DNA of 64,000 nucleotides from Candidatus Aminicenantes bacterium (GCA_020348385.1 CP070750.1:4264520-4328519); one strand, 5' to 3'. Shown: positions 2,357-55,233, counted from the stretch's first letter. The notes: generated from the letters alone by a model not told the origin. Numbers and translations: made by a program.

Positions 2357-2419
2357 ACGGCCCAAATATTATAGAATAGGTATTTGCTCCATCATATCTC
2401 ATCAAACAAAGGTGATAGA

Positions 2420-10338: not shown

Positions 10339-11039
10339 CAGATCACATAGCTTTCCAGATTCCCATTCTGGAGTTTGAACGCCTTTTCCATCAGCCGGGC
10401 AAAATCGAAGGAATGGGTCACGGTTATAAAGGCGGTCCCTTCCTCTTTATTCATTCCGACCAAAAGTCGACCGAGATTTTCAGAAGAGTCCTTGTCGAGC
10501 GAACCTGTCGGTTCATCTGCCAGGACCAGCTTGGGCTTGTTTATCAAGGCCCTGACGACAGCCACACGCTGCATCTCTCCGCCGGACAATTGCGCCGGGA
10601 AATATTCCCTGTGATTGCCAAGGCCGACTCTATCTAACAATTTTTTTGCCCTTTCCTGAACCTCACCGTCCCTGTCCCGTTTTTTCAATCCGAGCGGAAT
10701 CGTCGGGATCAACACGTTTTCCAAAACCGTGCACTGCGGGAGCAGATGATGGAGTTGAAAAATAAAACCGATCTCTTGGTTCCGGATGCGCGAGAGTTCG
10801 GTATCATCACATTCAGCAAGATTTTTCCCGAAAAGCGACACCACTCCGGAGCTGGGTTTATCAAGGGCTCCCATGATGTTCAACAGAGTGCTTTTCCCAG
10901 ATCCCGATGGTCCCACGATGGCTATGGATTCACCCGAGCTGACCTGCATCGAAATGTCTTTCAGCACGGTCGTGTAGCCCTGGCCAGACGGAATATCGTA
11001 TTTTTTGGCAATATTTTTTAGTTCAAGTAACATCTTCAT
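10338..11039 (-). CDS. ABC transporter ATP-binding protein (MacB/LolD-like)
   Basis: Walker A GPSGSGKST, signature LSGGEMQRVAVVRAL, Walker B LVLADEPTGSLD. Probable start is MKMLLELKNI at 11039; the ORF track extends it to 11240. Confidence 0.9.
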   Translation of the reverse strand: MKMLLELKNIAKKYDIPSGQGYTTVLKDISMQVSSGESIAIVGPSGSGKSTLLNIMGALDKPSSGVVSLFGKNLAECDDTELSRIRNQEIGFIFQLHHLLPQCTVLENVLIPTIPLGLKKRDRDGEVQERAKKLLDRVGLGNHREYFPAQLSGGEMQRVAVVRALINKPKLVLADEPTGSLDKDSSENLGRLLVGMNKEEGTAFITVTHSFDFARLMEKAFKLQNGNLESYVI

Positions 11040-12309
11040 AAACCCCTGCGATATTTTTTGCCATGTGATCCATGGAAAAATTCTCCAATACAACCCGCCT
11101 CCCCTGATCCCCCAGTTTTCTGATTTTATCCGGATCAGACAGGAGGGAGGCCATGGCAGAAGCGAGTTTCTCGCCTGTGTTCGGCTCATAGATAAGGCCG
11201 CCTTGGGTTTTTTCAACAAATTCTGGATAGCAGCCCACATTCGGCTGAACGACCGGAACCCCGGCCGCCAAAGCCTCCACTTGATAGGCGCCGAAGGCCT
11301 CTCCTGTGGGAACCGGGACAGAGAGCAAGGTCAATGATTTGAGAAAAGCAACCCTGCTGCTTTTGCAAAAATCATCGAATAGGATGACATCATCTTTAAA
11401 ACCGTGTTCTGCGATCTTTTTCATCTGCCCATTCAGAAAAGGCTTGTCATCGCCGGAATAACCGCCAGTCAGATGTAATTTCAGATCCCTGAATCGGTTA
11501 TCTTCTTTAAGCGCCATAAAAGCGTCAACCAGTATATCCAGTCCAAAATATTCCGACAATCGGCATAAATATCCAATGACCGGAGGATCGAACGGAAGCG
11601 TTGATTTTTCATAGCCCTCCAGATCTATCCCGCCGTGTATCACTTTAATCCGATCTCCGGGCAATTTCAGCTGCTCCTGAGTTTTATCTGCATAGTACTG
11701 GCTGGCTGAGACAAAAAAGTCCACATCAACAGCCTTTTCCGCCATCAATTTCCAGACTTTTTTTTGGTAATCTATGCCCATCAGGTCTACCCATTCGTTC
11801 TCATCCTGGAGAGAACACACCACGCCTGCTCCCAGGTCCGCCTTGAGCCTGTGGGCCAGCCCGAGCAGCAGGGCATTCGAGAGATGAACCACATCCGGAC
11901 CAACATTGTCCCGAAGGTGTTGGATGAGATGGTCGAGTTCGGATGCCTGGCGTCCCTTTTCTCCTTCCAGCATGGAGAGGGTCATCTCTTCCAGTCCGGT
12001 GGGACGCGTAGAACCGGATTTTTTGGCTGCCAAGTGAAGCAGTGACGGAGAATCGAGAAGACGTTCAATCCATACGGGAGCGCTCCTGTAAAACGGAAGT
12101 TTTTCTTTGAGATAGATGTTGACAGCACCGTAAAACACCGGGGTGACCGCAACATCGGCAGGTGTCTCCATCCCTGAAGGAAGATACATCGGGACCTTGA
12201 TCACCTTGTGCCCGAGAGATGATAAAGATTGGAGCAATGCTGTGTCGCGAAAACAATTCTGGCAGTAGAATTGCAAACCATGACCGGGGGTTACGTAGGC
12301 AATCTTCAT
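11023..12309 (-). CDS. Glycosyltransferase family 4 (GT-B fold, group 1)
   Basis: C-terminal EAFGAYQVEALAAGVPVV...E motif typical of the GT4 EX7E. N-terminus MKIAYVTPGHG. Overlaps both neighbouring genes, suggesting translational coupling. Confidence 0.75.
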   Translation of the reverse strand: MKIAYVTPGHGLQFYCQNCFRDTALLQSLSSLGHKVIKVPMYLPSGMETPADVAVTPVFYGAVNIYLKEKLPFYRSAPVWIERLLDSPSLLHLAAKKSGSTRPTGLEEMTLSMLEGEKGRQASELDHLIQHLRDNVGPDVVHLSNALLLGLAHRLKADLGAGVVCSLQDENEWVDLMGIDYQKKVWKLMAEKAVDVDFFVSASQYYADKTQEQLKLPGDRIKVIHGGIDLEGYEKSTLPFDPPVIGYLCRLSEYFGLDILVDAFMALKEDNRFRDLKLHLTGGYSGDDKPFLNGQMKKIAEHGFKDDVILFDDFCKSSRVAFLKSLTLLSVPVPTGEAFGAYQVEALAAGVPVVQPNVGCYPEFVEKTQGGLIYEPNTGEKLASAMASLLSDPDKIRKLGDQGRRVVLENFSMDHMAKNIAGVYEDVT

Positions 12310-13466
12310 GTTTTTTCTCCAAAGGCATAAATCCGTCCGTCATCGGAACCGATAACGACAAATCCCGAGTCCACAGCAGGACAGCTGAAAAGGGGGGCTC
12401 CTATCTCGTATGACCAGAGTTCTTTGCCGCTGTTTAAATCCACGATATACAATCTTCCATCCAACGACCCTACAACAACCTTTTCTCCGGCAATGACAGG
12501 CGAACTGTCGATATCATCTCGGGTTTGGAAGATCCAAATCTTTTCGCCTGTTTTGCGGTCCACACAGTGCAGAGAATCATTCCGCGACCCGATTAGAACA
12601 CGATCTTTTCCCACGGCAGGGGAAGAAAAAAAGGCATCGGGATTTTCCTTGTCAAAGTACTCCCAGTTTATCTTTTTTTCCTTCCTATCGATACAAACCA
12701 GTTTGCTGTCATAATGACCGAGATAGGCTTTGTCTCCTGCCAAGGCAGCCGAACCGGGAATGTAAGAACCGGCCCATACTTCGCCGATTTTTCTCCCATC
12801 CAAAACAGACAATATGTGTAGCAATTCGTCACAACCACCGAATAGGACATGTTCACCGTCGGTGGACGGCGCCCCATTGATATAGTTATCGGTTTCATAC
12901 GACCAATTCAGTTCTCCCGTTTCTGCATCGAAGCAGTACAGCCGATTGTCATAGCTACCGACCATAACCCAAGTTCTTTGATTTTGCGGATTTATCACCC
13001 AGTTGGCTGAACCATAAATGGAATTATCACATTTGTATTCCCATCGGACCTGTCCTGTGTTTGCATCCAAACAATAAAACTCTCCGCTCAAATTTCCCAC
13101 ATAAACAGCTTCATTCAACAGGAGAGGGGAGGCTTCGATATCATCCTTGGTATCGAACTCCCAGACTTTTTCCCCATCCGACAGGTTTAGCGCATACACT
13201 TTTCCATCGGATGAACCGCTGTAGACACGTCCCAATCCCATCACGGGGGATCCGATTATCCAGGAATCGGTCTGGAAGGACCACAGCAAACCCAGCTTTT
13301 CGGGAAGCCCATTTTTGGCTACTCCTGACAAGGCGGGATCCCCGCGAAATATGGGCCAACTCACATCTGTGATATCCACCGCTTCCTCTTGGGCTTCTTC
13401 TTTTGCACAGGAGAGGAAAAGAATGGGCAGGATCAGCAGTAAAGCCATAAATTTTCGTTTTCGCAT
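12306..13466 (-). CDS. PQQ-like beta-propeller repeat lipoprotein (paralog)
   Basis: Probable start is MRKRKFMALLLILPILFLSC (lipobox) at 13466; the ORF track gives a long upstream extension. WPIFRGDP motif and repeated blades. Confidence 0.8.
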   Translation of the reverse strand: MRKRKFMALLLILPILFLSCAKEEAQEEAVDITDVSWPIFRGDPALSGVAKNGLPEKLGLLWSFQTDSWIIGSPVMGLGRVYSGSSDGKVYALNLSDGEKVWEFDTKDDIEASPLLLNEAVYVGNLSGEFYCLDANTGQVRWEYKCDNSIYGSANWVINPQNQRTWVMVGSYDNRLYCFDAETGELNWSYETDNYINGAPSTDGEHVLFGGCDELLHILSVLDGRKIGEVWAGSYIPGSAALAGDKAYLGHYDSKLVCIDRKEKKINWEYFDKENPDAFFSSPAVGKDRVLIGSRNDSLHCVDRKTGEKIWIFQTRDDIDSSPVIAGEKVVVGSLDGRLYIVDLNSGKELWSYEIGAPLFSCPAVDSGFVVIGSDDGRIYAFGEKT

Positions 13467-13476
13467 GATAAATTCC

Positions 13477-15081
13477 TCAGCGACCGATATCCTCTCTTGT
13501 CTCCCGATCTCTCCAGGAAAGAGCACCCGTCGGACAGGCCGAGACACATGCGGCGGCTGCTTTTTCCAATCCTTGGTTGAGCGGCACACCCAATGACGGT
13601 TGGACGCGAACATCGAATCCGCGGTTAACAAAAACCAGCCCGAATTTTTCACCTGCTTTTTTCGTGATTTGCACGCATAATCCGCACTTGATACATTTCC
13701 CGGACTCATAAACGACCTTGTCATGCTGGATGTTTTTCTGGAATTTTTTCCTTTCCACGAAGGTGAAACGGCGCTGGCTGGCCTTGTATTCTTCGGCATA
13801 TTGCCGCAATTTGCATGTATCGGGTTTGCGGCAATCACAGCCGAAACAGCGCCTGGATTCGCTGACTGCTTCAGAATCTGTGTAGCCTTGGTTATTAAAA
13901 TTGGCGGGAACAATCCTCTCCTGCTCTGTCGCTTCCTTCAGGAATTCACCCGCTTCATCCTCCCGTGTTTTTCCCAGGATGGATTGAAATCTGGCAAAAG
14001 ATGCTGTAACCTCCTCGCCTTTTAAGAACTGGTTCACAGAAAACGCCAAATTTTTACCATGCGCCACGGCTCGGATGGCCATTTGCGATTCCGAAGCAGA
14101 AATCGCATTCCCACCGGCAAAATATCCCGGCACACTTGTTTGATAGGTCTTTCTGTCAATCATGATACCGCGGCGGGTAAGCTCGATGCCCGAAGATTCA
14201 AATAGATCGGGATCTGTTTTGCCGACAGCCAAGACAACCGCGTCATAAGCATTTTTCAGATCGTCCCAATTTAAATCCGTACCCAGAGATCGCTCCATTA
14301 AAAAGGCAGCCCCCATTTCAGCGATGCGATCGATTTCCTGATCCAGGACAGCCTTGGGCAAATTTTCATCGGAAACGCCATAACGGAGCATCCCACCCGG
14401 CTGCCGATTTTTGTCAAACACATCACAGGTATGCCCGAATTGGAGAATATAATAAGCGGTAGACAGGCCTGTGGGTCCGGCCCCGATGATGGCCACTTTT
14501 TTCCCTGTATTCAGAGTCATAATCGGTCGATAGGGAGACTTCTGCTCCAGATCGATATCCGCCACGTGCCTTTTCAGCAAACAGATCGATACAGGATCGT
14601 CATAAGAACCCCGGTGACAACCTTTTTCACAAGGAGCCGGGCAGATTCGACCCAAAACCGCAGGAAGGGCGATTTCTTTTTTTATGGTCTGGATCGCCTC
14701 CTCCAGCTGCCCTTCCCTGATTTGCCTTATCATAAGCGGGATGTTCATGTGGGCAGGGCAGGCACGTTGGCAGGGAGCATCACAATCGCCCACATGCTCA
14801 CTCAACAAAAAGTCCAAAGCATCCTTCCGTGCTTCCCGCACCAACTCATTTCCGGTCTCAATCCGCATTCCCTCGGAAACGACTGCCGAACATGCTGGAA
14901 GCAATTGTTCTGTGTTGGCTTCGTACACGACACAAATCATACAAGAGGTGAACCGTTCAAAACCATTCAAATAACACAGTGTGGGAATGTTTATATTCAG
15001 CTTTTTGGCCGCGTCCAGGATTGAGCCATCCACCGGAATGGCGATTTCCTGTCCGTCGATAGTTAATTTTACGTTTTTCAT
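13477..15081 (-). CDS. Iron-sulfur flavoprotein: NuoG-N-terminal-like [2Fe-2S]/[4Fe-4S] ferredoxin domain fused to a GltD/NfnB-like FAD/NAD(P)H oxidoreductase (StnA-like)
   Basis: Probable start is MKNVKLTIDGQEIAIPVDG at 15081, overlapping the upstream stop by ATGA. Cys motifs CDAPCQRACP and CPAPCEKGC. Dinucleotide-binding motif VAIIGAGPTGL. C-terminal CxxCxxC...CP clusters. Confidence 0.75.
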   Translation of the reverse strand: MKNVKLTIDGQEIAIPVDGSILDAAKKLNINIPTLCYLNGFERFTSCMICVVYEANTEQLLPACSAVVSEGMRIETGNELVREARKDALDFLLSEHVGDCDAPCQRACPAHMNIPLMIRQIREGQLEEAIQTIKKEIALPAVLGRICPAPCEKGCHRGSYDDPVSICLLKRHVADIDLEQKSPYRPIMTLNTGKKVAIIGAGPTGLSTAYYILQFGHTCDVFDKNRQPGGMLRYGVSDENLPKAVLDQEIDRIAEMGAAFLMERSLGTDLNWDDLKNAYDAVVLAVGKTDPDLFESSGIELTRRGIMIDRKTYQTSVPGYFAGGNAISASESQMAIRAVAHGKNLAFSVNQFLKGEEVTASFARFQSILGKTREDEAGEFLKEATEQERIVPANFNNQGYTDSEAVSESRRCFGCDCRKPDTCKLRQYAEEYKASQRRFTFVERKKFQKNIQHDKVVYESGKCIKCGLCVQITKKAGEKFGLVFVNRGFDVRVQPSLGVPLNQGLEKAAAACVSACPTGALSWRDRETREDIGR

Positions 15082-17438
15082 CTGATGTCCACCGATTCTG
15101 TCGGGCACACCTGCTTGCATGTCCCGCATTTGACACACTTCGTCTGATCGATTAAGTGCCGTTGGTAGGGGACTATGGCGATCGCACCGGCCGGACACTT
15201 TTGGGCACAAACGGTACAACCTATGCAGGTTTCATCGATCGTATACGTGATCAGCTCTTTGCATCGCTTGGCAGGGCAGATTCCTTTTAAATGAGCCTCG
15301 TATTCTTCCTTAAAGTAAGCCAGGGTTGTCAGGACGGGATTTGGGGCGGTTTTCCCCAGTCCACACAGACTGCCTCGTTTGGTTTTCTGGGCAATTTCTT
15401 CCAGCTTGTCAAGGTCTTCCTGTTTTCCTTTTCCGGCACACAGATCCTCCAGAATCTGCAGCATGTGCCGTGTGCCTATCCGACAAAAGGTGCATTTCCC
15501 GCAGGATTGGTTTTGCGTGAACGATAAAAAATACCGGGCGATGTCCACCATGCAGTCGGAATCATCCATCACCAACAAGCCACCCGAACCCATCATGGCA
15601 CCCGCATTGGTCAGGTCTTCGTAATCGACTCTGGTGTGGGCCATTTCGGCAGGAATGCAGCCGCCGGACGGCCCTCCGATTTGGACAGCCTTGAACGGTT
15701 TATCATTTTCGATGCCACCACCGATGTCCTGGACGATCTCTTGTATCGTGATGCCCATCGGAACCTCGATAAGCCCACCACGGGCAATTTTCCCCGCCAA
15801 GGAAAAAACTTTGGTTCCCTTGCTTTGGATTGTTCCCATCCGGGCAAATGCGTCCGCCCCATTCCGGATGATCCAGGGTACCGTGGCAAACGTCTCACAA
15901 TTGCTGACCAAGGTGGAATGGCCCCAGAGTCCTTTTTGGGCCGGATAGGGAGGCCTGAAACGGGGGTTCCCCCGTTTTCCTTCCAGGGAAGCAATCAGGG
16001 CCGTTTCTTCCCCGCAGACAAAGGCACCGGCTCCCTCAAGGATGTGCAACTCAAGCGAATATCCTCCCCCCATGATATTTTCCCTCAAAAGCCCGCATTC
16101 CCTGCATTGCCTCAGCGCATCTTTCACCCGCTGGACGGCGAGGGGATACTCCGCACGAATGTAAAAATATCCCTCACAGGCTCCCACCGTGTAGGCCGAA
16201 ATGATCATGCCCTCGATGACCCGAAACGGGTAGGATTCCAGGATCATCCTGTCCATGAATGCACCCGGGTCCCCTTCATCTCCGTTGCAGATGATGTATT
16301 TCGTATCATCTTGGGATTGCTGGACCACTTCCCACTTCTGCCCCGAGGAGAAACCAGCGCCTCCCCTTCCTCGCAGTCCGCTCGATTTGATTTGGCCGAG
16401 CACTGCTCCTGGAGAAGATTTGGTTAGACATAGTTCTAAGGCTTCAAATCCTCCTTTGGAGCGGTATTCTTCGAGATCGAGGGGATCGATCTGGCCGGAA
16501 TGTTCTGTGGCGATGTGTTTCTGTCTACCCAAAAAAGCTTGGATACTCGGATCCCGCATATGAAGGGGGTGGCGTGTAAATCCGTTGGCACGTGGGTCCT
16601 CGAGAATATTTTCAATAAATTGATATGCCGCAATTTTGATACGCTGGCTCAAGGATTTTGGTTTATAGTGTTTAAGAAGGATGTCCCGTACATCTTCCGG
16701 CTTTACGCTGTCATACAAAACAGGATCTTTTTCTGGAATATTCACTTCCAGAAGCGGTGTCCGGTGGCACATCCCCACACACCCGACCCTCTTGACCTGG
16801 GTGCTAATCCCCGTTTGTGCCAGTGACTTTTCCAGAGCCTGCTGCACACGTTGGCTTCCGCTGGCCACACAGCAGGAGCCCAACCCGATCTTGATTTCCC
16901 CAACTTTTTCAGTAGGGATTTTTAGATCACGAGCAGATTCCTCACTTCCGGCCGAGTGCCGAAGAAAATCCTGGATAATAGGGGCAACGCCATCTGTTTT
17001 CACATGTCCGTATGTCACATTGTCGATTTGAACGACTGGGGCGATGGTGCAGCAGCCAAGACATGCGATTTTTTGAACGGTGAATAAAAAATCTGGGTCT
17101 GTGTCTTGGCCATGTTCGATGTGCAGCTCGCGACAGAAAGCATCGTACACAAGCTCAGATCCTTTGACATGGCAAGCCGTGCCCGTACAAATCCGGATAA
17201 TGTGTTTCCCGATCGGGGTGTGCCGGAACTGAGAAAAAAAGGTCGACACACCTGTTATCGCGGCGGGTGTTATCTCGGTGACTTCACACACCCTCCGGAG
17301 GGCCTCCTCTGGAAGATAGTTATATTTTTTCTGAATGGCATGCAGGATCGGGATGACATCACCGGGTTTTGTGCCGATTTTTTCGACTACATTCTCGACA
17401 AAAGAAAGGATGCTGTCCGTCTCCGTCTCTTGTTTCAT
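15078..17438 (-). CDS. Fused NuoE-like (thioredoxin-like 2Fe-2S) and NuoF-like (FMN/NADH, 4Fe-4S) flavoprotein with C-terminal 2x[4Fe-4S] ferredoxin (HydB/HndC/StnB-like)
   Basis: NuoE-like Cys pattern ICTGTACHVKG...CLGCC. NuoF-like GAGAFVCGEETALIASLEG and glycine-rich FMN/NADH motifs. C-terminal CIGCTVCAQKCP...CVKCGTCKQVCP. Confidence 0.85.
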   Translation of the reverse strand: MKQETETDSILSFVENVVEKIGTKPGDVIPILHAIQKKYNYLPEEALRRVCEVTEITPAAITGVSTFFSQFRHTPIGKHIIRICTGTACHVKGSELVYDAFCRELHIEHGQDTDPDFLFTVQKIACLGCCTIAPVVQIDNVTYGHVKTDGVAPIIQDFLRHSAGSEESARDLKIPTEKVGEIKIGLGSCCVASGSQRVQQALEKSLAQTGISTQVKRVGCVGMCHRTPLLEVNIPEKDPVLYDSVKPEDVRDILLKHYKPKSLSQRIKIAAYQFIENILEDPRANGFTRHPLHMRDPSIQAFLGRQKHIATEHSGQIDPLDLEEYRSKGGFEALELCLTKSSPGAVLGQIKSSGLRGRGGAGFSSGQKWEVVQQSQDDTKYIICNGDEGDPGAFMDRMILESYPFRVIEGMIISAYTVGACEGYFYIRAEYPLAVQRVKDALRQCRECGLLRENIMGGGYSLELHILEGAGAFVCGEETALIASLEGKRGNPRFRPPYPAQKGLWGHSTLVSNCETFATVPWIIRNGADAFARMGTIQSKGTKVFSLAGKIARGGLIEVPMGITIQEIVQDIGGGIENDKPFKAVQIGGPSGGCIPAEMAHTRVDYEDLTNAGAMMGSGGLLVMDDSDCMVDIARYFLSFTQNQSCGKCTFCRIGTRHMLQILEDLCAGKGKQEDLDKLEEIAQKTKRGSLCGLGKTAPNPVLTTLAYFKEEYEAHLKGICPAKRCKELITYTIDETCIGCTVCAQKCPAGAIAIVPYQRHLIDQTKCVKCGTCKQVCPTESVDIR

Positions 17439-17445
17439 GATCGTC

Positions 17446-19161
17446 CTATTTCCCTATGCAGTACAAATTTTTTGTTCCCCGGATGTATATCCGATTATGC
17501 ATGAAGGCAGGGATGCTCACCGCCGTTTCACCCAGTTCGTTCCGGCTTATCAGTTCGTATTTCTTATCCGCTTTAAAAATATACATAGTCCCCGACATAT
17601 CCATCAGATACACCAAGTCTCCGACAAGGATGGGAGAGGAATAGAATCCCTCATCGAACTCCTCGATCCACATCCTCTCTCCGGTCTTGTTGTCAAAACA
17701 TGTCACAGTGCCATAACTGGCAGCCATGAATAATAAGTTTTTGGAAGCCAGAGGACTGGATACTTCAGATAGATCGTCGATGTATTCCCACACCAGCTCC
17801 ACGCTCTCTCCTAATTTTATGCCAGCTAGGCGGGCATAGTCGTTGACCGCAAACACCATGCCGTCGGCATAGGCGGGAGAGGGGGCGATTTCCCCCAGCA
17901 TGCATTTCACCCGCCACAACTCCTGCCCTGTTCGGGGATCGTGAGACATCACGAACGGGTTGGAATTGAGGATGATCTCCTCTCTTTTTCCCGTGTTTAC
18001 CAAAATGGGCGATGCCCACGAAATCTCCACTTCCCTCGGTTGATCATATACGATATCCCCTGATTGGGCTCTCAAGGCGAGCAAACGCCCTCCCGTGTTC
18101 TGGTCGTACTGGACCAGCAGCAGATCTTGATAGGTGATCAACGACGACGAGTGCCCGTAATGATTTTCCGGCACGCCTAGGTTTTTGGCCCAGATGCGAT
18201 TCCCCTCTAAATCGAGACAAGCCATATCTCCCGTGGCAAAAAGAGCAAAAATTCGGGTACCATCGGTTGTCATCGTGGGGGCGGCAAAACCTGTATCCTC
18301 GGTAACCTGGGGGCGTCTTTCGGGAGAGCCTGGAATGTCATTCAATTCCATCTGCCAGAGAATCTCTCCCGAGTCGGCATCGATGCAGTACACAACTTGT
18401 GTCCTTCTGTCCGCACCCGAGAGGAAAATCTTTTTTTCCCATATGATCGGGGAATTATAACCGGGATGAGGAATCGGAATTTTCCAAAGGATGTTCAAAC
18501 CTGAGGGGCCGTCCCATTCGGTAGGTACATCCGTATGATAGGCCCAACCAATTCCCTCCGGGCCGCGGAAACCGGGCCAGTTATTCCTTATTTCCTGAAT
18601 GCTGGTATAGTCTGGAACACCCTGTCTTTTTCCCGGTTGAAAAATGCCTATCTTTTTAAGCTCAGTCTGGGATATCACCCCGAAAACCAAGGCCAGCAGC
18701 ACTATTCCCAGTCCACCGTAAAGGATATATTTTCGGGATAAAAGCCTATTCTCCCGAGTCTTTTCCGGGTCGGGACTTTTGGTTAAATCGGGCAACCTGG
18801 GTTCGAGCGAACTCATGTATTTCAGAGCCAGAAGACAAACGAGCACAAACGCGAACAGAAGGTAACTCCCTGTTCGGATCTGCCATTGATGGGTGAAATA
18901 CGCTTTTCTGGCCAGCAAATCGAGAGCCCGGATCTGCTCTATCAAAACCGTGTCTTCCGGATTCTCTCGGAGCTTTGTCATCAGTTGAGAAATGGCCTGG
19001 CTGTTGAGCGGATCAACCGACTTCGTCTGGATGTAATTGGCGATCATCAGAATACTGAGAATTCCCGCCAACACAGCGCAGACAACGGCGATCCTTTTGG
19101 CGATTTTGTACCAAAGCTCTGTCCTGTTTTTTCTGTTATTTTCGATAGGTTGTTTTTCCAT
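17446..19161 (-). CDS. Membrane-anchored PQQ-like beta-propeller repeat protein (paralog with ~190-aa N-terminal region containing TM segments)
   Basis: Hydrophobic segments IAVVCAVLAGILSILMIANYI, LLFAFVLVCLLAL and ILYGGLGIVLLALVFGVI precede a WPGFRGP motif and the propeller blades. Start is most likely MEKQPIENN at 19161, giving a 4-nt gap to the upstream stop; the alternative at 19194 would overlap. Confidence 0.75.
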   Translation of the reverse strand: MEKQPIENNRKNRTELWYKIAKRIAVVCAVLAGILSILMIANYIQTKSVDPLNSQAISQLMTKLRENPEDTVLIEQIRALDLLARKAYFTHQWQIRTGSYLLFAFVLVCLLALKYMSSLEPRLPDLTKSPDPEKTRENRLLSRKYILYGGLGIVLLALVFGVISQTELKKIGIFQPGKRQGVPDYTSIQEIRNNWPGFRGPEGIGWAYHTDVPTEWDGPSGLNILWKIPIPHPGYNSPIIWEKKIFLSGADRRTQVVYCIDADSGEILWQMELNDIPGSPERRPQVTEDTGFAAPTMTTDGTRIFALFATGDMACLDLEGNRIWAKNLGVPENHYGHSSSLITYQDLLLVQYDQNTGGRLLALRAQSGDIVYDQPREVEISWASPILVNTGKREEIILNSNPFVMSHDPRTGQELWRVKCMLGEIAPSPAYADGMVFAVNDYARLAGIKLGESVELVWEYIDDLSEVSSPLASKNLLFMAASYGTVTCFDNKTGERMWIEEFDEGFYSSPILVGDLVYLMDMSGTMYIFKADKKYELISRNELGETAVSIPAFMHNRIYIRGTKNLYCIGK

Positions 19162-19165
19162 GATA

Positions 19166-20512
19166 CTAAGCCCTGAACTGTTTGATTCGAACATCCCGTC
19201 TATCCAATTCCTTGAGTTCCTCTGGCGTCATCAGTCCCAATCGAACTTGCTCATAGGGACAGTAGGCAAAGCAGCGTCCACAGCTGAGGCATGTCCCTTT
19301 GTCCACATCATACTCCAACTGCCTCCGCCGGATAAAAAGGCCGATAAGTTTCAAGCAAAGGATCAAACCGATAAAACCGCCCAATATCCAGCCTCCCCTA
19401 CGGAATTGGCTTTGGATGACACTCGCTTCTGCAAATAACTCTTCCGATGGTTTTCCCGTAGCACGGAAGGCTTTTGTCGCATCGGTCATCTCCGTTCTTT
19501 TTCCCGCATTTTCCAGAAGCACCTCTTCAGCCAAAGATACGGTGGGATGCAGACGGGACAGAGAAACATCCAATCGTGATCCGATCCAGCCAAAACCGAT
19601 GACAACAACAGGAAGGAGGACAAGTAGGGCCGCCACCTGTTTGACATCTCCCTCTCTTTTCATGGGCTGTGTTTCATCATCCGCCTTTTTTATGGCTCCG
19701 AACGGACAGGATTCCTCGCACAACCGGCAGTTGTTGCACTCATCCGGTGTGATCCTGACGTGACGCCTGGAAAGACGTGACATCCAGTTCAAAAGCACTC
19801 CATACGGGCAAAGATAACGGCAGTAGGGACGAGCGACGACTGTTCCCAGCAAGAGCATGGAGAAACCAAAGATGACCATGTTGAAATCTGCCCCAAAACG
19901 GAAAAATCCGATGAAAGGATCGTACTGGCATATGATAAAACCCGCGCCTGTTGCGGCAAACAAGACAGCAAGGCCCAAATAGACATACGGAAAAACACCC
20001 AAGAGGGCAGCCAACCATTCCGGCACGTTGATCGGATTCAGGACGACAGCATCCTGAATGGCCCCGAGAGGACAAACGGCAGCACAGAATGTGCGGCCGA
20101 AAAACAAGGCAAAAACTAAGGGAAGAATAAAAAATAGGACGACAGACAAAGGAATAATGTAGGCTGGGTTGAAAAAAGCGTAGCTGACATTCTGCACAGC
20201 TCCGACAGAACAGACACATCCCTTCCTGTAAAACCCGAAATAGGCAAGAGCAAACACCATCAAAAGGAAGATGTTCCGACGGGAGCGCTGATTGTGAGCG
20301 AAATACGTCGCTAAAGAAAGGGCCGCAACCAAGACGAATATATCCATGTATTCCCATACAGCAGCTCGCGGTGCCGGTGTGAGCAGATCGGGCCGCACAT
20401 AACCCGATTCAAAATCGGGCTTGGGAAAGCGCTCCTGAACTTGGGAGAAGACAAATACAGGACAGAGGAGCACCAGAGCCACAACAAAAATCTTCAACCG
20501 TTTCAATTTCAC
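19166..20512 (-). CDS. NapH/MauN/NosR-family membrane-bound 4Fe-4S ferredoxin-type protein
   Basis: Multiple TM helices. CAAVCPLGA and CRYLCPYG motifs are typical of the NapH/MauN family. C-terminal ferredoxin motifs CNNCRLCEESCP and CLSCGRCFAYCP. Confidence 0.75.
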   Translation of the reverse strand: MKLKRLKIFVVALVLLCPVFVFSQVQERFPKPDFESGYVRPDLLTPAPRAAVWEYMDIFVLVAALSLATYFAHNQRSRRNIFLLMVFALAYFGFYRKGCVCSVGAVQNVSYAFFNPAYIIPLSVVLFFILPLVFALFFGRTFCAAVCPLGAIQDAVVLNPINVPEWLAALLGVFPYVYLGLAVLFAATGAGFIICQYDPFIGFFRFGADFNMVIFGFSMLLLGTVVARPYCRYLCPYGVLLNWMSRLSRRHVRITPDECNNCRLCEESCPFGAIKKADDETQPMKREGDVKQVAALLVLLPVVVIGFGWIGSRLDVSLSRLHPTVSLAEEVLLENAGKRTEMTDATKAFRATGKPSEELFAEASVIQSQFRRGGWILGGFIGLILCLKLIGLFIRRRQLEYDVDKGTCLSCGRCFAYCPYEQVRLGLMTPEELKELDRRDVRIKQFRA

Positions 20513-21096
20513 CCTTCCCGAAATTTTCCGCTCTCATCTCCCCTGAGGATGTAGGGCTGGCTGGCTGGCACCCGTTTCCAAGCCCGGGAGGGACACCTCC
20601 TGGCGATCGAGCACTGATTGCAATTCAAACATCGGTCATGCCGAGCCTGCAGGTACAAAGACCCGTTCCCGAACGAATTGCAGCCTTTCACGCATTTGCC
20701 GCACCCAACACACAATTTCTCATCGATCGTGTATTCAAAATAAGGATCTTCGATGTATGTCCGCTTGATCGCCCCGGAGGGACAGAGCTGGCTTTCCGCT
20801 CCTGTGTCTCTGGATTTGGCCCCGGGCTGAAGATAACCGCTGCACAGGTCGCAATAACCGCACATCGAATAGGAATGAACACATTTCACAGCCGAGTGGG
20901 GCAAAACACAGTTGACCGCGCATTTTTCACACTGGATACAGATGTTGGGATCCAACTGCCAGACCGTCTCTTCGGCTGAAGACTTACGGGACAGGATTCC
21001 TGCCAATCCTCCGACCGTCAGACCCACAATCACATGGAGACTTTTCCTCACAAAATCTCGGCGTTTAACCGGATTTGTTTTCGTTTTTCCCGTCAT
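20509..21096 (-). CDS. Tat-exported 4Fe-4S ferredoxin-type protein (NapG/MauM-like)
   Basis: Twin-arginine motif RRDFVRKSLHVIVGLTVGGLAG. Four CxxCxxC(xx)CP-type clusters (CIQCEKCAVNC, CGYCDLC, CVGCGKCVKGC, CLNCNQC). Overlaps its neighbours by 4 nt. Confidence 0.75.
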   Translation of the reverse strand: MTGKTKTNPVKRRDFVRKSLHVIVGLTVGGLAGILSRKSSAEETVWQLDPNICIQCEKCAVNCVLPHSAVKCVHSYSMCGYCDLCSGYLQPGAKSRDTGAESQLCPSGAIKRTYIEDPYFEYTIDEKLCVGCGKCVKGCNSFGNGSLYLQARHDRCLNCNQCSIARRCPSRAWKRVPASQPYILRGDESGKFREG

Positions 21097-21344
21097 TTCC
21101 GGCCTCTATATTCCTGCTTTGTTTCCCTGGCTTTGCGCTGCCGACAACCGGGAAGCTTCGAACAAATCCTGCAGGGTAAATCGATGACACAGGACGTTTT
21201 TTTCCCTGAGACCTTCCTCCAAGCAAGAGACAAACCCCCAAACGCCAGCCCGCTCAACAAAACCATCCGCACTCCATCCTTCAAAAACTCTCGCCTGTTT
21301 TTTTTCCTATGCTTCTCCTGCATCGTGAAACTCTCCTGCTTCAT
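21093..21344 (-). CDS. Small Tat-signal protein with a C-terminal Cys cluster (hypothetical)
   Basis: RREFLKDG twin-arginine motif plus a hydrophobic helix, then CVIDLPCRICSKLPGC and a basic tail. ATGA overlap with both flanking genes. 83 aa, so coding status is uncertain. Confidence 0.45.
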   Translation of the reverse strand: MKQESFTMQEKHRKKNRREFLKDGVRMVLLSGLAFGGLSLAWRKVSGKKTSCVIDLPCRICSKLPGCRQRKARETKQEYRGRK

Positions 21345-22330
21345 GATTTTTTCTTTGCAAAGATCCTCACTCGCTTTTGAAGCGGATCTAAAACATAGAT
21401 TTTTTGTGTGGAATCGACAGCCAGATCCAGGCCGACCGTGCCCTCCAGAAATTGTTCTGTCGGGGCAACAACGGAAACAAGATTTCCGAGGCGGTTGTAG
21501 ATCTTGATTCTAGGGAGGCCCTTTTCGCTGGTCACAAAGGAACCGTCCACCAACAGGGTAAAGTGGGATGGATTGCAGCACCCGCTGAATCCCTGGATCT
21601 CCATCCCGAACTCACCCCATGATGTCCGGAAATTTCCATCGACGGTATAATTCTCGAGGGAATGGCGCCCGGTGTTGGCGACCCAGAGAAATCCGTCCGC
21701 ATCGATAGCCACGTCGAAATAGGGGCTAGGGATGATGAATCCCGGAATATCTTTGGTTTCGTTTTTATCTCCGATCCTTTGAAGATTCAATCCGGATTTA
21801 TCGAACTTCCAGACAATTTTATTCCCAGCATCAGCGACAAAAACACTTTTTGCTGAGACCGCAATCGATGTGATGATGGCTTTTTCACCCAGAGATTCCC
21901 AACCAGCTTGTCTTATGCCTTTCTGATCGTAAACCTCGACATGATCTCCCATCCCGAGATACAAATCATGGTTTTTGTCGATAGCCAAACAGCGGATCGG
22001 CCCACTTGATTTAAAAGAAGATCGCGGTGTCCCATCGTTGTCGAAGACAAGTACAGAACCGTTGCCGGACACATAAATCCTATCGTCCGGCCCGACGGCA
22101 ATTCCGGAAACCTTCGGCAAATCGATGGGAATGTGTCCCACCTCGGAGTAATGAACCAAATCGGCGCCGCTCTCTGCATAGCTTTGGATATCGTAGGCAA
22201 AAGGATTCTGTTGATCATTTTTTCCATGGCCTCGAACAGCTCTGTATCCGAAGTAGAAGATGCCCGTCAAAGAAACCGCTAAAATCGCACTGGTTAAAAT
22301 TTTTTCTTTTTTCAAATTAAATATACCCAT
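21341..22330 (-). CDS. NHL-repeat beta-propeller protein, N-terminally membrane-anchored
   Basis: N-terminal TM segment ILTSAILAVSLTGIFYF. Repeated D-x-x-G-x-hydrophobic-Y/W-V-hydrophobic-D blades (DRIYVSGNGSVLVFD, HDLYLGMGDHVEVYD, SVFVADAGNKIVWKFD, FLWVANTG) typical of NHL/six-bladed propellers. Confidence 0.7.
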   Translation of the reverse strand: MGIFNLKKEKILTSAILAVSLTGIFYFGYRAVRGHGKNDQQNPFAYDIQSYAESGADLVHYSEVGHIPIDLPKVSGIAVGPDDRIYVSGNGSVLVFDNDGTPRSSFKSSGPIRCLAIDKNHDLYLGMGDHVEVYDQKGIRQAGWESLGEKAIITSIAVSAKSVFVADAGNKIVWKFDKSGLNLQRIGDKNETKDIPGFIIPSPYFDVAIDADGFLWVANTGRHSLENYTVDGNFRTSWGEFGMEIQGFSGCCNPSHFTLLVDGSFVTSEKGLPRIKIYNRLGNLVSVVAPTEQFLEGTVGLDLAVDSTQKIYVLDPLQKRVRIFAKKKS

Positions 22331-22344
22331 TTCGCAGTCTCCGG

Positions 22345-23778
22345 TTATGGATTGACCCTCAGATCGATACAGACCAATCGGCGCGAATCCCGCGCGAGCA
22401 ACCGGCCCTCAACAAAAGCCAACGGCCCCCAAGCATCCACTCCTTCGAGAATTTTGACCTGAGCCAGTTGAACGTATTCCCTTGCACTGGCTCTGGCTAT
22501 AGTTAAAACTCCATCATCGCTGAGTATGAAAAACTTATCATCTGCCACGATATAAGGGCCCAGCCCGAATCGATTCGTCTTTCCGCTGGACCAGATAAAT
22601 CGACTGATGTCATCCGGATGGCAGCACACGAATTGATTGCGCAGCGGTCCGGCATCCTTGGGCAATATGCAAAAAAGATGACCCGAGAAGAATATCGGTG
22701 TTTGTTGCTCGGACGCCATTCCTTCCTCCGGTTTTATCGTTTGGATGGCTTCCACCGAAAAAACACCGGCTTCCTCCTTAATTCTGACCATCGAGCTGCC
22801 CGACCCGTATCCGGCCGTCAGAAAGATTCTCCTATCTCCCAGATAAACGGGAGATGGCGCGATGACATTGTGGTTCCACAAACGGGATTCAAACAATATC
22901 TTGCCCGCTTCCTCCCCATCTGCGGCAACACCAACAATCCCTCCGATAGCGCAGTACACATACATCTTTATGCCGTTTATGACAAAAGGCATGACGGAAG
23001 AATGGGACATTTTCCAGTTGTTGGGATTGGGCGTTTCCCACACCACCTCACCGGTTTCACAATCGACAGCAATGATCAGCGATTTCCCCCCAACAGCAAA
23101 CACGGCCAGGGTGTCATCGATCAGAGGGCACTGCCCGGTGTACCAAAGGGGCACCTCGGTTCCATAGTCTTTTCCCAAATCGATGCCCCATTTGAGATCT
23201 CCGGTGACTGCATCCACACACATGACATGACATTTAGGCCCGATGGTCACAACATACTTTTCTGTTGCCGCTGGAACAGTCCGAGACATCCCATGATTCC
23301 GTTTCACGAAAAGGTCATACCCCCTCCGCCAAATCTCAGCTCCATTATCCAAAGAAAAACAACGCAAAACATCCGCCCTCTGCTCTTCATCGTAATCCAG
23401 AAGATAGACCCGTCCGTTCGAAACGACTGGACCGGCATGACCCTCCCCTAAATCTATGGACCAGAGAATATCTGGCCCTGCATCGTCCCATCTGTCGATA
23501 AGTTGGATGTTTTCCTTGCTGATGTTATCAAAATCGGCTCCCCGGAATCTCGGCCAGCTCCCACGGATTGCGGAGGGGATTCCCTCGAAACTTTCGAAAT
23601 GGGCACCGATTTCCACAGCATCGCTAGCGCTGACAAATCCAAGAGGTCGGTTGTCCATCCCGGGAAGGCTTTCTGCAAAATCCTTGACCGGATTGTACAG
23701 GAGCCACCAAGTCAGAAAAACCAGCCCGAGAAAGGCTGTTCCGAGAATAGTGACACGGTTTACTAATTTCTCATTCAT
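22345..23778 (-). CDS. Membrane-anchored PQQ-like beta-propeller repeat protein (paralog)
   Basis: Probable start is MNEKLVNRVTILGTAFLGLVFLTWWLL (TM anchor) at 23778, preceded by GGTGA. WPRFRGADF motif and blades. Confidence 0.8.
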   Translation of the reverse strand: MNEKLVNRVTILGTAFLGLVFLTWWLLYNPVKDFAESLPGMDNRPLGFVSASDAVEIGAHFESFEGIPSAIRGSWPRFRGADFDNISKENIQLIDRWDDAGPDILWSIDLGEGHAGPVVSNGRVYLLDYDEEQRADVLRCFSLDNGAEIWRRGYDLFVKRNHGMSRTVPAATEKYVVTIGPKCHVMCVDAVTGDLKWGIDLGKDYGTEVPLWYTGQCPLIDDTLAVFAVGGKSLIIAVDCETGEVVWETPNPNNWKMSHSSVMPFVINGIKMYVYCAIGGIVGVAADGEEAGKILFESRLWNHNVIAPSPVYLGDRRIFLTAGYGSGSSMVRIKEEAGVFSVEAIQTIKPEEGMASEQQTPIFFSGHLFCILPKDAGPLRNQFVCCHPDDISRFIWSSGKTNRFGLGPYIVADDKFFILSDDGVLTIARASAREYVQLAQVKILEGVDAWGPLAFVEGRLLARDSRRLVCIDLRVNP

Positions 23779-24994
23779 CACCGATATGATAGACCATAAG
23801 CGCATCGCCGTGCCGGATGTAAAGACGCCCGTCCTTGATAACGGGATGGGCCCAGTGTTCACCAGAGCCTTTTTTCACCCGAAAAGAACTCACCAGATGA
23901 AACTCCTCAGGATTGGGTTTGACCAAACCTACATACCCGTTTTCACTGTAGCAAAACATCATTCCATCGGCAAAAATGATCGCCCCTTTATTCCCAATTT
24001 TTCTTGCCGTGTACTGGACTTTTCCGGTTTTCCAGTCCAGGCAATGCCATCCTCGATTATTATGGCCCGAGCCGTAAATATAGCCGTCGACTAAAATCGC
24101 GGCTCCCATCTGACTGTCAAGCTTTCTTTGCGACCAGACCCGCTTGACACTCGCTCCGTCTTCGGAGAGCTGGAACATCTGACCGCCGGTACCATATCCG
24201 CTCACCGTATACACAAAACCGTTATGATAGAGGGGTGTGTTCGCATTAACTGTATAATCCGTGACATGGGATTGGCGCCACAGATAGTCTCCTGTATCGG
24301 CATCGATGCCGACGAAGGAGCTGCCCGTCATGGTTAAAAGCAGGCGTCTTTTGCCGTGTTTGACAAGACAGGGAGAACAGTATCCTGATGATTCTCCGTC
24401 TGCTTTAATCTCCCAGATCGTTTTCCCGGAATGCCTGTCCAATGCAACGATCGTGACTTTCCGACCTCCAGGGGTGCAAAAAACCCGATCCCCATCCACA
24501 AGAAGGGACTCCGTCATTCCCCACTGCAAATTCCGTGCTCCGAATTGTGCCATCAGATCGACCGACCATATCTTCTTGCCATCCGTGCTAAAACAGACAG
24601 CTTGTCCCTTGGCGCTCATCAAGTAGATCCTGTCGCCGACAACGGTGGGAGTGGTCCGGGCACCGGGTCGACTTCCATTCCATTCCGGGCCGTAGGAGGC
24701 TTTCCAGACAGTTTTCCCATTTCTATCGAAGGAAAACAAAAACCCTTCGCCGCCGGTCATCCCGGTCAGATAAACACGATCCGCTGTCACGGCCGGAGAA
24801 GAATAGCCCTCCCCAAGACCCTCCACAGACCATATTAGCGCAGGCCCTACCTCCGGCCATGCCTTCAATAGATTCTCGCCGGGATAAACACCATCCCGGT
24901 TGGGCCCCCGCCACTGGGATTCTATCTGCCCTAAGGCTATAGAACATCCCAACCCAATAAACAACAAGGTGGTCACCACAAAGATTTTTTTCAT
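23771..24994 (-). CDS. PQQ-like beta-propeller repeat protein, secreted (paralog)
   Basis: Signal peptide MKKIFVVTTLLFIGLGCSIALGQ. QWRGPNRDGVYPG motif. Blades such as YSSPAVTADRVYL. Confidence 0.8.
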   Translation of the reverse strand: MKKIFVVTTLLFIGLGCSIALGQIESQWRGPNRDGVYPGENLLKAWPEVGPALIWSVEGLGEGYSSPAVTADRVYLTGMTGGEGFLFSFDRNGKTVWKASYGPEWNGSRPGARTTPTVVGDRIYLMSAKGQAVCFSTDGKKIWSVDLMAQFGARNLQWGMTESLLVDGDRVFCTPGGRKVTIVALDRHSGKTIWEIKADGESSGYCSPCLVKHGKRRLLLTMTGSSFVGIDADTGDYLWRQSHVTDYTVNANTPLYHNGFVYTVSGYGTGGQMFQLSEDGASVKRVWSQRKLDSQMGAAILVDGYIYGSGHNNRGWHCLDWKTGKVQYTARKIGNKGAIIFADGMMFCYSENGYVGLVKPNPEEFHLVSSFRVKKGSGEHWAHPVIKDGRLYIRHGDALMVYHIGDE

Positions 24995-26715: not shown

Positions 26716-27138
26716 ATGGCCAAAATAGAATGGGACGATAGCTTATCTGTGGGCGTAGGACTGATCGATGAACAGCACAAAATGCTCATCCAAAAGTTAA
26801 GAGATCTGTCTGACGCTTTAGATGAAGGACGTGAATTCAATAAAATCATGAAAACTCTCGACTTCATGATCGACTACACAGACTTCCATTTTTCCACAGA
26901 AGAAAAACACATGGCAGAACATGACTATCCTGAACTGGAGGATCAAAAAAATCAGCACGAGCACTTCAAAGTCACATTGAACCACATTTTGGAGGATTTC
27001 AAAGAGGAGGGCCCGACAAAGGCACTGGCCACATCGATCAACGTATTTCTGCTCAACTGGCTCATCAATCACATCAAAGGAACCGACCTCAAACTCGGCA
27101 AGTTTTTTGCAGAAAAAGGCTTGACTGATATCCAATAG
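26716..27138 (+). CDS. Bacteriohemerythrin (hemerythrin-like metal-binding domain protein)
   Basis: MAKIEWDDSLSVGVGLIDEQHKMLI is the canonical hemerythrin N-terminus. His/Glu ligand pattern HF...H...E....H...H..D. Confidence 0.85.
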   Translation: MAKIEWDDSLSVGVGLIDEQHKMLIQKLRDLSDALDEGREFNKIMKTLDFMIDYTDFHFSTEEKHMAEHDYPELEDQKNQHEHFKVTLNHILEDFKEEGPTKALATSINVFLLNWLINHIKGTDLKLGKFFAEKGLTDIQ

Positions 27139-55223: not shown

Positions 55224-55233
55224 TTTTGACCTC

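Follow-up and report, generated by a model that had tools for sequence, protein, structure and literature searches.

To our knowledge, the characterised enzymes of flavin-based electron bifurcation are soluble and cytoplasmic, the menaquinone-linked, membrane-associated EtfABCX being the exception. The bifurcating core of the Bfu family consists of flavin mononucleotide (FMN), a [4Fe-4S] cluster (B1) and a [2Fe-2S] cluster (C1) (PMC11829005, PMC12018979, PMC9304861); a B2 site formed by one His and three Cys, and the B3/B4 domain, which is the ferredoxin port of these enzymes, also belong to the core and are without counterpart in non-bifurcating NuoF homologues (PMC9304861, PMC12018979). In the Sporomusa-type transhydrogenases (StnABC/NfnABC), for which we used the structures from Sporomusa ovata (8oh5), Caldicellulosiruptor saccharolyticus (9bov) and Thermococcus sibiricus (9n5u), NADPH reduces flavin adenine dinucleotide (FAD) at an NAD(P)H-binding Rossmann subdomain, and the electron path in the NfnA of T. 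sibiricus is FAD-A7-A6-A3-A2-A1-B1 (PMC12018979). According to the main text of a survey of the family, Nuo-Bfu and Mbh-Bfu are the only membrane-bound types, and 17 of the 57 clades of BfuB (clades 1-17) are unassigned (PMC9304861). Here we describe two adjacent genes, B and A (positions 13477-17438), in a window of 64,000 nucleotides (nt; the whole stretch of DNA analysed) of Candidatus Aminicenantes bacterium, whose products probably form, within a conserved redox system that spans the membrane, the cytoplasmic Bfu-type module that reacts with NADH, and not a soluble transhydrogenase.

Both genes are open reading frames (ORFs) on the minus strand: gene B (15078..17438) encodes a fused BfuC-BfuB protein (HydC/NuoE-like plus HydB/NuoF-like) of 786 amino acids (aa), and gene A (13477..15081) a truncated, NfnA/StnA-like BfuA of 534 aa. 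The longest ORF of gene A spans 13477-15219 with a TTG start at 15219; the ATG at 15081, which overlaps the gene B stop by 4 nt (ATGA), gives the 534-aa product, and this is 100% identical to a database protein (P0001) of a Candidatus Aminicenantes metagenome-assembled genome, while an exact database look-up of the 786-aa gene B protein returned no match. A first-pass annotation, made from the DNA sequence by a model, had described two genes with a 4-nt overlap, placed between propeller genes and with the HydC-like and HydB-like subunits fused in 786 aa; the ORFs, the flanking PQQ_2 genes (17446-19194 and 12306-13469) and the Pfam domains of gene B bear this out.

Gene B is a genuine NuoE/HydC-NuoF/HydB fusion because of its Pfam domain set: two 2Fe-2S_thioredx domains (5.5e-50), Complex1_51K (4.7e-42), SLBB, NADH_4Fe-4S (4e-32) and a C-terminal 2x[4Fe-4S] domain. 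Searched with phmmer against the PDB, it matches T. sibiricus NfnB (9n5u_B; 2.2e-210), the B subunit of C. saccharolyticus NfnABC (2.6e-210), S. ovata StnABC (7e-199) and the bifurcating NiFe and FeFe hydrogenases (1e-197 to 5e-168), and complex I Nqo1 at about 1e-105. Expressed in bits, the NfnB proteins of T. sibiricus and C. saccharolyticus and the StnC of S. ovata score 704-666 against 355 for Thermus Nqo1, i.e., Bfu relatives score about twice as high as complex I relatives, and the alignments thus place the gene in the HydABC/StnABC (Bfu) lineage, to which it had first been ascribed, and not in complex I. The BfuC-like part (residues 1-160; 16959..17438, minus strand as all features of the operon below) carries the C1 ligands C84, C89, C126 and C130; its 2Fe-2S_thioredx domain covers residues 15-157 and it matches the NuoE model of NCBIfam at 3e-42. 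A second thioredoxin-like domain (B5 site, residues ~179-262; 16653..16904) matches the N-terminal domain of NfnB/HydB; B5 holds Zn in two Nfn enzymes and lies outside the minimal site (PMC12018979), and the window protein has Cys 189, 190, 220 and 224 there, only C190 and C220 being invariant family-wide. The NuoF-type core (residues ~300-720; 15279..16541) contains an FMN/NADH loop of sequence GLRGRGGAG, an SLBB domain, the B1 ligands C646, C649, C652 and C692, and a B2 site (C629, H716, C721 and C726) that aligns with C437, H524, C529 and C534, the B2 ligands of T. sibiricus NfnB (PMC12018979). The C-terminal ferredoxin domain with the 2x[4Fe-4S] site B3/B4 (15081..15257; Fer4 families) contributes the motifs C738-C748 and C768-C778. 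C1, B1, B2 with its His and three Cys, all eight B3/B4 Cys and the FMN loop are invariant among 69 gene B orthologues, so a check for the signatures of the bifurcating site found all of them. Because all core ligands are present and invariant, gene B is, by its ligand set, a BfuC-BfuB fusion with the Bfu family's core intact and complete, whose bifurcating activity itself is a proposal; the invariance of B2 and B3/B4 over 69 orthologues from more than 10 phyla argues that these sites continue to be used.

The product of gene A contains, according to Pfam, Fer2_4 (residues 1-78), Fer4_20 (100-180), a partial Pyr_redox_2 (190-342) and a NuoG-like Fe-S domain (410-525), and its best solved relatives, both by sequence and by predicted fold, are the NfnA proteins of C. 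saccharolyticus and T. sibiricus and the StnA of S. ovata. The A1 [2Fe-2S] domain (14797..15081; Fer2_4) has the ligands C36, C47, C50 and C64, which are invariant in 82 gene A orthologues. It is followed by an NfnL/GltD-type Fe-S domain (14542..14796; recognised by Fer4_20, 3.2e-20, and by alignment to NfnA) with two [4Fe-4S] sites (A6/A7), the candidate ligands of which are H96, C100, C104, C108, C147, C151, C155 and C167; K170 sits at the position of the Lys that serves as cluster ligand in NfnA (PMC12018979). The Rossmann domain next to it (14014..14514; GxGxxG at 200-205, GG at 229-230 and GGN at 323-325) is of the FAD-binding kind only, and the AlphaFold2 model is confident there, with confidence scores (pLDDT, by block) of mostly 84-97 and of 72-78 at residues ~321-340. 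The NuoG-type Fe-S region (13507..13869) provides A3 (C412, C415, C417 and C423) and A2 (C463, C466, C469 and C516); A4 ligands are lacking, as they are in the NfnA of T. sibiricus (PMC9304861). The ligands of A1, A6/A7, A3 and A2 and the FAD motifs are conserved in the 82 orthologues, in agreement with the [2Fe-2S]/[4Fe-4S] motifs first noted in this partner protein, and ligands are thus conserved for each cofactor of the path FAD-A7-A6-A3-A2-A1.

What gene A lacks is the NAD(P)H-binding half of the flavoprotein. Alignment with HMMER equates gene A residues 1-289 with NfnA 1-288 and residues 280-522 with NfnA 427-672, so that NfnA residues ~290-425 have no counterpart, and a deletion scar (residues ~288-299; 14185..14220) marks the place that in NfnA/GltD is taken by the NAD(P)H-binding subdomain of ~140 residues. 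An alignment (MAFFT) of gene A with 645-709-aa homologues of the same architecture opens a single clean gap of ~140 residues, Pyr_redox_2 is covered only at profile positions 142-291, and PRK12814 (657 positions) matches in two separate pieces (431 bits; cut-off 916) because the NAD(P)H subdomain is missing. The protein also ends near NfnA residue ~680, and the ~500-residue NuoG/Fdh-like C-terminal domain of StnA/NfnA is absent. Since the NADPH-binding Rossmann subdomain is gone, gene A should be unable to use NADP(H) in the way Stn/Nfn does, and it fails a defining feature of these enzymes. The domain content therefore does not equal that of StnABC, as the first-pass annotation had it; of the FAD/NAD(P) domain claimed for the partner, the FAD half of the GltD/NfnL-like module stands and the NAD(P)H-binding Rossmann subdomain does not. 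Equivalence with Stn/Nfn must likewise be given up, as the NADP(H)-binding subdomain is deleted. A canonical fused NfnS-NfnL gene is present elsewhere in the window (52950-55253, minus strand), where an NfnS-like part (NAD_binding_1 and DHODB_Fe-S_bind) is fused to a full NfnL-like part (Fer4_20 and complete Pyr_redox_2); by its domains this 767-aa product is a canonical NfnAB-type transhydrogenase in a single polypeptide. Gene A is, as judged from its motifs and alignments, a cut-down NfnA/StnA that keeps the full electron wire of NfnA and has lost the NADPH site. The short form is common: about 130 of the best 150 gene A representatives (clustered at 50% identity) are shorter than 590 aa, mostly 480-560 aa. 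Among these short-form relatives, one (P0129) is fused to a second, complete GltD-like flavoprotein and Fer4, and another (P0138) to a URO-D-like domain. A fusion of gene A with a PQQ_2 propeller (P0214) was excluded from the evidence, because only 7 nt separate the two genes in the window and the fusion could be a sequencing frameshift artefact.

The evidence for a membrane-spanning system comes from the genes that accompany the pair. Relatives were collected by a pattern scan of species-representative genomes, which gave at least 592 candidate stretches, the best 80 of which were analysed; synteny was counted by comparing the 15 proteins of the window with every ORF of the relatives' loci in blastp, the denominators including only loci with enough upstream DNA. 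Upstream of gene B lie, in this order, tP, a NapH-like membrane polyferredoxin (H), a twin-arginine-signal ferredoxin (G), an NHL-repeat propeller and a second propeller (P2), and they recur with high constancy: the gene B orthologue (CB) was found in 61/62 loci, tP in 55/56, H in 52/53, G in 48/49, the NHL propeller in 44/46 and P2 in 42/44, and the full upstream order P2-NHL-G-H-tP-CB is kept in 41/44 loci from more than 10 phyla. Such synteny across phyla strongly supports the functional coupling to propeller genes that had been suspected from the gene overlap and the location within the propeller operon, and genes B and A, as a Bfu-family module, are very probably tied in function to the NapH/NapG-like and propeller genes. 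Among the best 80 of the at least 592 stretches, the cluster occurs in at least 80 species-level genomes of more than 10 phyla, including Aminicenantes/Acidobacteriota, KSB1, Calditrichota, Lentisphaerota, Kiritimatiellia, Planctomycetota, Poribacteria, Armatimonadota and Bacteroidota. A Zixibacteria contig has the identical 15-gene order, a Latescibacterota contig has 13 of these genes with their order kept, and the cultured Maribellus comscasis has the entire cluster; in the latter the orthologues of BfuCB and gene A are separated by a GDSL-lipase-like gene (8896-9972 of locus L087), and BfuCB is preceded by a 61-aa ORF.

The NapH-like and NapG-like genes, which the first-pass annotation had overlooked, can account for the coupling of a cytoplasmic flavoprotein to the periplasm, rather than the propellers as such. 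H (19166..20512; 448 aa) matches Fer4_5 and the NapH/MauN/NosR families of NCBIfam and contains two CX3CP and two CX2CX2CX3CP motifs together with C99, C101 and C195, and all motif Cys as well as these three are invariant; its ferredoxin motifs are predicted to face the cytoplasm (hydropathy and positive-inside rule). G (20509..21096; 195 aa; 4x[4Fe-4S]) is NapG-like because of its conserved twin-arginine motif and the 16 invariant Cys in four ferredoxin motifs. As membrane-bound and periplasmic Fe-S and propeller genes thus accompany the pair, the module looks like the inner end of a transmembrane machine for electron transfer.

Genes are packed on one strand from ~24994 down to 4245 with overlaps or gaps of at most 63 nt, and from these overlapping or nearly abutting genes, genes B and A and their neighbours are a single minus-strand operon. 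Scans for promoters and terminators at either end of the operon yielded site counts no higher than in shuffled sequences, and an Rfam search of the window yielded no riboswitch or other RNA. Adjoining gene B upstream, tP (17446..19194) has three predicted transmembrane (TM) helices followed by a periplasmic PQQ_2 propeller. Between G and the NHL propeller lies a small protein of 83 aa (21093..21344) with an RREFLK twin-arginine motif, a hydrophobic segment and a four-Cys motif, which is CX6CX2CX5C in the window and CX5CX2CX5C in most relatives; a small Cys4 ORF occupies this position in most loci that have both genes, including those of Planctomycetota. In these ORFs (~70-93 aa) an RRxF twin-arginine motif is followed by a hydrophobic segment, then by a basic stretch and the four-Cys motif, and the protein may be a tiny exported subunit that binds metal or an Fe-S cluster. 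The NHL-repeat propeller (21341..22330) has an N-terminal anchor and an invariant vicinal pair C251-C252 (GFxGCCNP), and P2 (22345..23778) is a TM-anchored propeller, modelled as 8-bladed and PQQ_2-like, with best database matches of 68-88% identity and invariant Cys, His and Met residues including H190, H287 and C413 (numbering of the 505-aa ORF). In FCB-type loci the conserved block opens with a signal-peptide PQQ_2 propeller (23771..24994). Gene A is followed immediately downstream by P10 (12306..13469), a PQQ_2 propeller with a lipoprotein-like signal, a GT4 glycosyltransferase (11023-12309), an ABC ATPase (10338-11039), a duplicated FtsX/MacB-type permease (7045-10338) and, at the downstream end of the operon, two further propellers (5617-6981 and 4245-5582). 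As a syntenic series, the genes from GT4 to the last propeller are confined to FCB-type and Bacteroidota loci; the GT4, ABC and FtsX genes are limited to FCB-type, Bacteroidota and a few other loci, and we regard them as accessory because Planctomycetota-type loci keep the redox core without them. Clustering all ORFs of 83 loci against one another for a catalytic subunit, regulator or maturase returned shadow ORFs only. The operon is bracketed by two PQQ_2 propeller paralogues with signal peptides (2384-3835, plus strand, and 25158-26519, minus strand), which begin with a W-x-x-[FW]-R-G motif like the other propellers, and a divergent gene (26716-27138, plus strand) for a 140-aa hemerythrin-domain protein lies in the low-GC gap immediately upstream of the operon.

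Variants of the cluster in which gene A is long help to interpret the shortened form. Three loci with long gene A homologues and enough flanking DNA (L085, L086 and L088) are of the same cluster type, and in a fourth (L084; 4.6 kb) only the downstream glycosyltransferase is visible. L088 has P2, the NHL propeller, the ferredoxin, the NapH-like protein, separate BfuC and BfuB, and a gene A of 709 aa that retains the canonical NADPH motif (VVVGGGNTAMDAARTA), and its BfuB retains the NADH site. L086 and L085 have fused CB and gene A products of 659 aa and 675 aa, respectively; the second Rossmann motif is degenerate in L085 (IAAGSPGTDEAR), and in L086 the GGG is kept and the NTAMD consensus lost (LGGGVEAVDCAR). 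Among intermediate forms, many already have a degenerate GxGxxA motif. Two variants are without tP, and in these the BfuC (L088, 5309-6205) or BfuCB (L086, 7881-10004) has two predicted N-terminal TM helices spaced by a charged linker of ~50 residues, and would be a membrane-anchored NuoE-like protein; because tP-less variants bear TM helices on BfuC/BfuCB, we infer that the Bfu module is attached to the membrane. In the L088 type, NADPH would take the FAD end and NADH the FMN, so that B3/B4 would be the sole free Fe-S end, and the cytoplasmic ferredoxin-like domain of the NapH-like protein would therefore be the most economical replacement of soluble ferredoxin. In clusters of the window type, the FAD end must have another partner, because it is under strong selection despite the loss of NADP(H).

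We propose the following mechanism. NADH would be oxidised at the FMN of gene B, which together with B1 and C1 would form the 'flavobicluster'. The low-potential branch would lead from C1 via B3/B4 to the ferredoxin-like 2x[4Fe-4S] cytoplasmic domain of H, which would replace soluble ferredoxin by physical contact with the module, and from H the electrons would pass across the membrane to G and on to the propeller proteins, with P2 and the Cys-Cys NHL protein as candidate catalytic subunits for whatever periplasmic chemistry may take place. Through the gene A branch, the companion electron would go to, or come from, a partner that replaces NADP(H) at the exposed FAD, for which quinone or another protein are candidates. 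What would keep the complex at the membrane is the TM module of tP or, in deeper-branching variants, the TM helices of BfuC itself. These steps differ in how firmly we hold them: a net flow of electrons outward appears to us an even call, and the assignment of the B3/B4 port to the NapH-like protein is tentative, somewhat short of an even chance. We consider it possible, if rather doubtful, that the system represents a new class of membrane-integrated bifurcating complex, in which an NADH-using Bfu core with a second partner at the NADPH-less FAD charges the NapH-like 'ferredoxin' with electrons of low potential. Equally speculative is its corollary, that electrons would reach propeller enzymes via the NapG-like ferredoxin, so that bifurcation might power reductive chemistry in the periplasm. 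The system itself is widespread among Planctomycetota, Kiritimatiellia, Lentisphaerota, Bacteroidota and candidate phyla of the FCB group.

Several points weigh against a membrane-spanning bifurcating system. NapGH-type proteins are usually regarded as quinol dehydrogenases, and electrons might for this reason pass via quinone and not by direct contact with the Bfu module. Aerobes and facultative organisms are among the carrier taxa, an atypical setting for Bfu enzymes, which are sensitive to oxygen, and the FAD of gene A is strongly conserved though NADPH-less. The propellers offer, as far as their sequences go, no assignable substrate or cofactor; P2 gave no significant sequence match among solved structures, and by fold its matches are limited to BamB, tetrathionate hydrolase and PQQ dehydrogenases, with 12-16% identity. 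The membrane topologies derive from a simple hydropathy scan, and a BLASTP comparison of the tP N-terminus with the TM extension of the L088 BfuC gave E = 3.1, i.e., homology was not detected and the two are, on present sequences, alike in architecture only.

Genes B and A might instead be an ordinary NADH dehydrogenase (diaphorase) without bifurcation, of the kind of NuoEFG or HoxEFU, that passes electrons from NADH down the Fe-S wire and FAD of gene A to quinone or to the NapH-like protein, the Bfu-specific features being an evolutionary legacy or surfaces for docking. Loss of the NADPH site leaves just two obvious ports, no bifurcation would be required for a periplasmic acceptor whose potential is moderate or high, quinone could be reduced by the exposed FAD, and the matches to the NuoF and NuoE families are strong. 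The B2 His and three Cys and the eight Cys of B3/B4 are, however, invariant in the 69 orthologues from more than 10 phyla, whereas non-bifurcating homologues lack them, and the L088 variant with its intact NADPH site has the full three-port layout of Nfn. We therefore regard a diaphorase as unlikely, although it fares best among the alternatives to a Bfu-type module in a membrane-spanning redox system.

Such a machine might also run inward, with a periplasmic propeller enzyme oxidising a donor of low or middle potential and the electrons passing through G and H to the Bfu core and on to NAD+ (and ferredoxin), much as in the uptake by bifurcating hydrogenases or formate dehydrogenases. Bfu enzymes are reversible (PMC9304861), and sequence leaves the direction unfixed. 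The transmembrane Hmc/Tmc complexes of sulfate reducers, which import periplasmic electrons, are a precedent. Yet no catalytic cofactor for the oxidation of H2, formate, CO or sulfur can be recognised in the propellers, and the import of electrons against the membrane potential costs energy, which makes this reading quite improbable.

Less probable still is a role in the biogenesis or maintenance of the envelope, in which the BamB-like propellers, GT4 and the FtsX/MacB-type ABC system would build or repair an envelope component and the redox module would only supply reducing power, e.g., for the repair of oxidised periplasmic proteins or for cofactor maturation. The propellers do have PQQ_2/BamB-type folds, the GT4, ABC and FtsX genes share the operon in FCB-type and Bacteroidota loci, and MsrPQ and DsbD are precedents for the export of cytoplasmic reducing power; but the same three genes are missing from Planctomycetota-type loci that keep the redox core, at least four periplasmic [4Fe-4S] clusters and a bifurcating-type core would be heavy equipment for a thiol repair system, and the cluster encodes no thioredoxin-fold or Msr-type protein. 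Least likely of all is a soluble, StnABC-like Sporomusa-type Nfn transhydrogenase that bifurcates among NADPH, NAD+ and ferredoxin, for although NfnABC/StnABC subunits are the closest solved relatives of genes B and A and their BfuBC core is complete, the NfnL-like module has lost its NAD(P)H-binding Rossmann subdomain, the genes are always encoded with conserved membrane and periplasmic partners and with TM helices on BfuC in relatives, and the canonical fused NfnS-NfnL gene in the same window makes a second transhydrogenase unnecessary.

A catalytic hydrogenase or formate dehydrogenase subunit does not occur in the operon, and the sole hydrogenase-like gene of the window, 40 kb away, encodes a fusion with a sensory kinase (57090-59180, minus strand): a [FeFe]-hydrogenase large-subunit domain and Fe-S domains are joined to a HisKA/HATPase histidine kinase, as might be expected of a hydrogenase-like sensor. 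Its neighbour (55234-56721, minus strand) encodes a hybrid response-regulator/PAS histidine kinase. Past the operon's 3' end and encoded on the other strand, a 755-aa protein (89-2356, plus strand) has a glutamine-amidotransferase-like N-terminus and a GXGXG domain (glutamate synthase alpha, C-terminal), without FMN or synthase domains. A molybdopterin enzyme of the xanthine-dehydrogenase/aldehyde-oxidase type (28119-30712, plus strand), with a [2Fe-2S] small subunit and a twin-arginine molybdopterin-binding subunit, is unrelated to the Fdh-like domain absent from gene A. The window further contains a second MacB/FtsX-type permease (30713-33124, minus strand) and a VKOR-DsbA/thioredoxin fusion (46430-47695, minus strand), a periplasmic disulfide-forming system.

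The locus is of interest because here the genes of a complete Bfu core are locked together with those of a transmembrane Fe-S conduit of the NapH/NapG type and of conserved propellers in the periplasm. If the proposal of a membrane-spanning redox system is true, it would provide a new route for electrons of cytoplasmic NADH or ferredoxin to the periplasm, or the reverse, and would give a function to the many 'BamB-like/PQQ-like' proteins that at present defy annotation; it would also present a natural series of the loss and replacement of an NADPH port, from an intact site through a degenerate motif to the deleted subdomain. The system is directly testable, as cultured Prolixibacteraceae (Maribellus, Mariniphaga) bear the entire cluster.

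We found no published account in which NapH/NapG-like proteins and propellers are coupled with a Bfu module, and the arrangement is not among the types in the main text of the Bfu survey, the supplement of which was checked by taxon names only (PMC9304861). The closest described membrane types, Nuo-Bfu and Mbh-Bfu (predicted to be membrane-bound), resemble the locus in that BfuABC genes lie inside the operon of a membrane complex and a Bfu core is combined with electron transfer in the membrane; where those types have proton-pumping modules of the complex-I or Mbh kind, this locus has NapH/NapG-like polyferredoxins and propellers of the periplasm as partners. Complex I (NuoEFG) itself was rejected, since gene B scores 460 bits against a nuoF_fam cut-off of 558.65 and no further nuo gene occurs in the operon or window. 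With the HydABC [FeFe]-hydrogenases and the NiFe-HydABCSL enzymes, gene B shares the BfuBC core (1e-168 to 1e-198), and gene A matches the Fe-S domains at the N-terminus of HydA, but the operon is without an H-cluster or NiFe subunit; HydABC and FdhF2-HylABC were rejected because no H-cluster or molybdopterin catalytic subunit is found in the operon or conserved across the 83 loci. NfnAB (NfnSL) shares with gene A the NfnL-like Fe-S and FAD domain, and was rejected as the NfnS-type subunit and the NADPH subdomain are missing from genes B and A. The order of 2Fe-2S, Fer4_20, FAD and NuoG-type Fe-S domains also recurs in PRK12814 ('putative NADPH-dependent glutamate synthase small subunit') and the 645-709-aa homologues, an architecture from which gene A differs by the lack of the NAD(P)H subdomain.

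For the membrane part, the counterparts are the NapGH/NosGH/MauMN/NosR-type pairs, which likewise combine a membrane protein with two CX3CP motifs and a cytoplasmic 2x[4Fe-4S] domain with a tetra-cluster ferredoxin exported by the twin-arginine route, and several systems of the NapGH/NosGH/MauMN type serve periplasmic beta-propeller enzymes (NosZ, cd1 NirS and methylamine dehydrogenase). Unlike NapH, the H protein scores only 46.6 bits against a cut-off of 234, and in the window it has two additional TM helices that interrupt the ferredoxin domain, as well as the invariant C99, C101 and C195; H and G are thus, by the profile scores and motifs available, similar to NapH and NapG in motif and not in equivalog membership. 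Catalytic nap, nos or mau genes were not found in the window or the related loci, and in contrast to NapGH-type systems H and G are coupled to a cytoplasmic NADH flavoprotein. The likeness is greatest to NfnABC/StnABC (8oh5, 9bov and 9n5u), with a BfuB that has FMN, B1, the B2 His/Cys site and B3/B4, a BfuC with C1, and a BfuA with A1, the inserted NfnL-like Fe-S domain including the Lys position, the FAD motif, A3 and A2. Unlike these enzymes, BfuC is fused to BfuB, BfuA has 534 aa as against 963-1178 aa, without the ~140-residue NADPH subdomain and the whole NuoG/Fdh-like domain, and the genes sit in a conserved membrane/periplasmic cluster in place of a three-gene operon. Genes B and A descend from Nfn-type Bfu enzymes and would work like them, minus two features of the subfamily, of which the NADPH site is the functional one.

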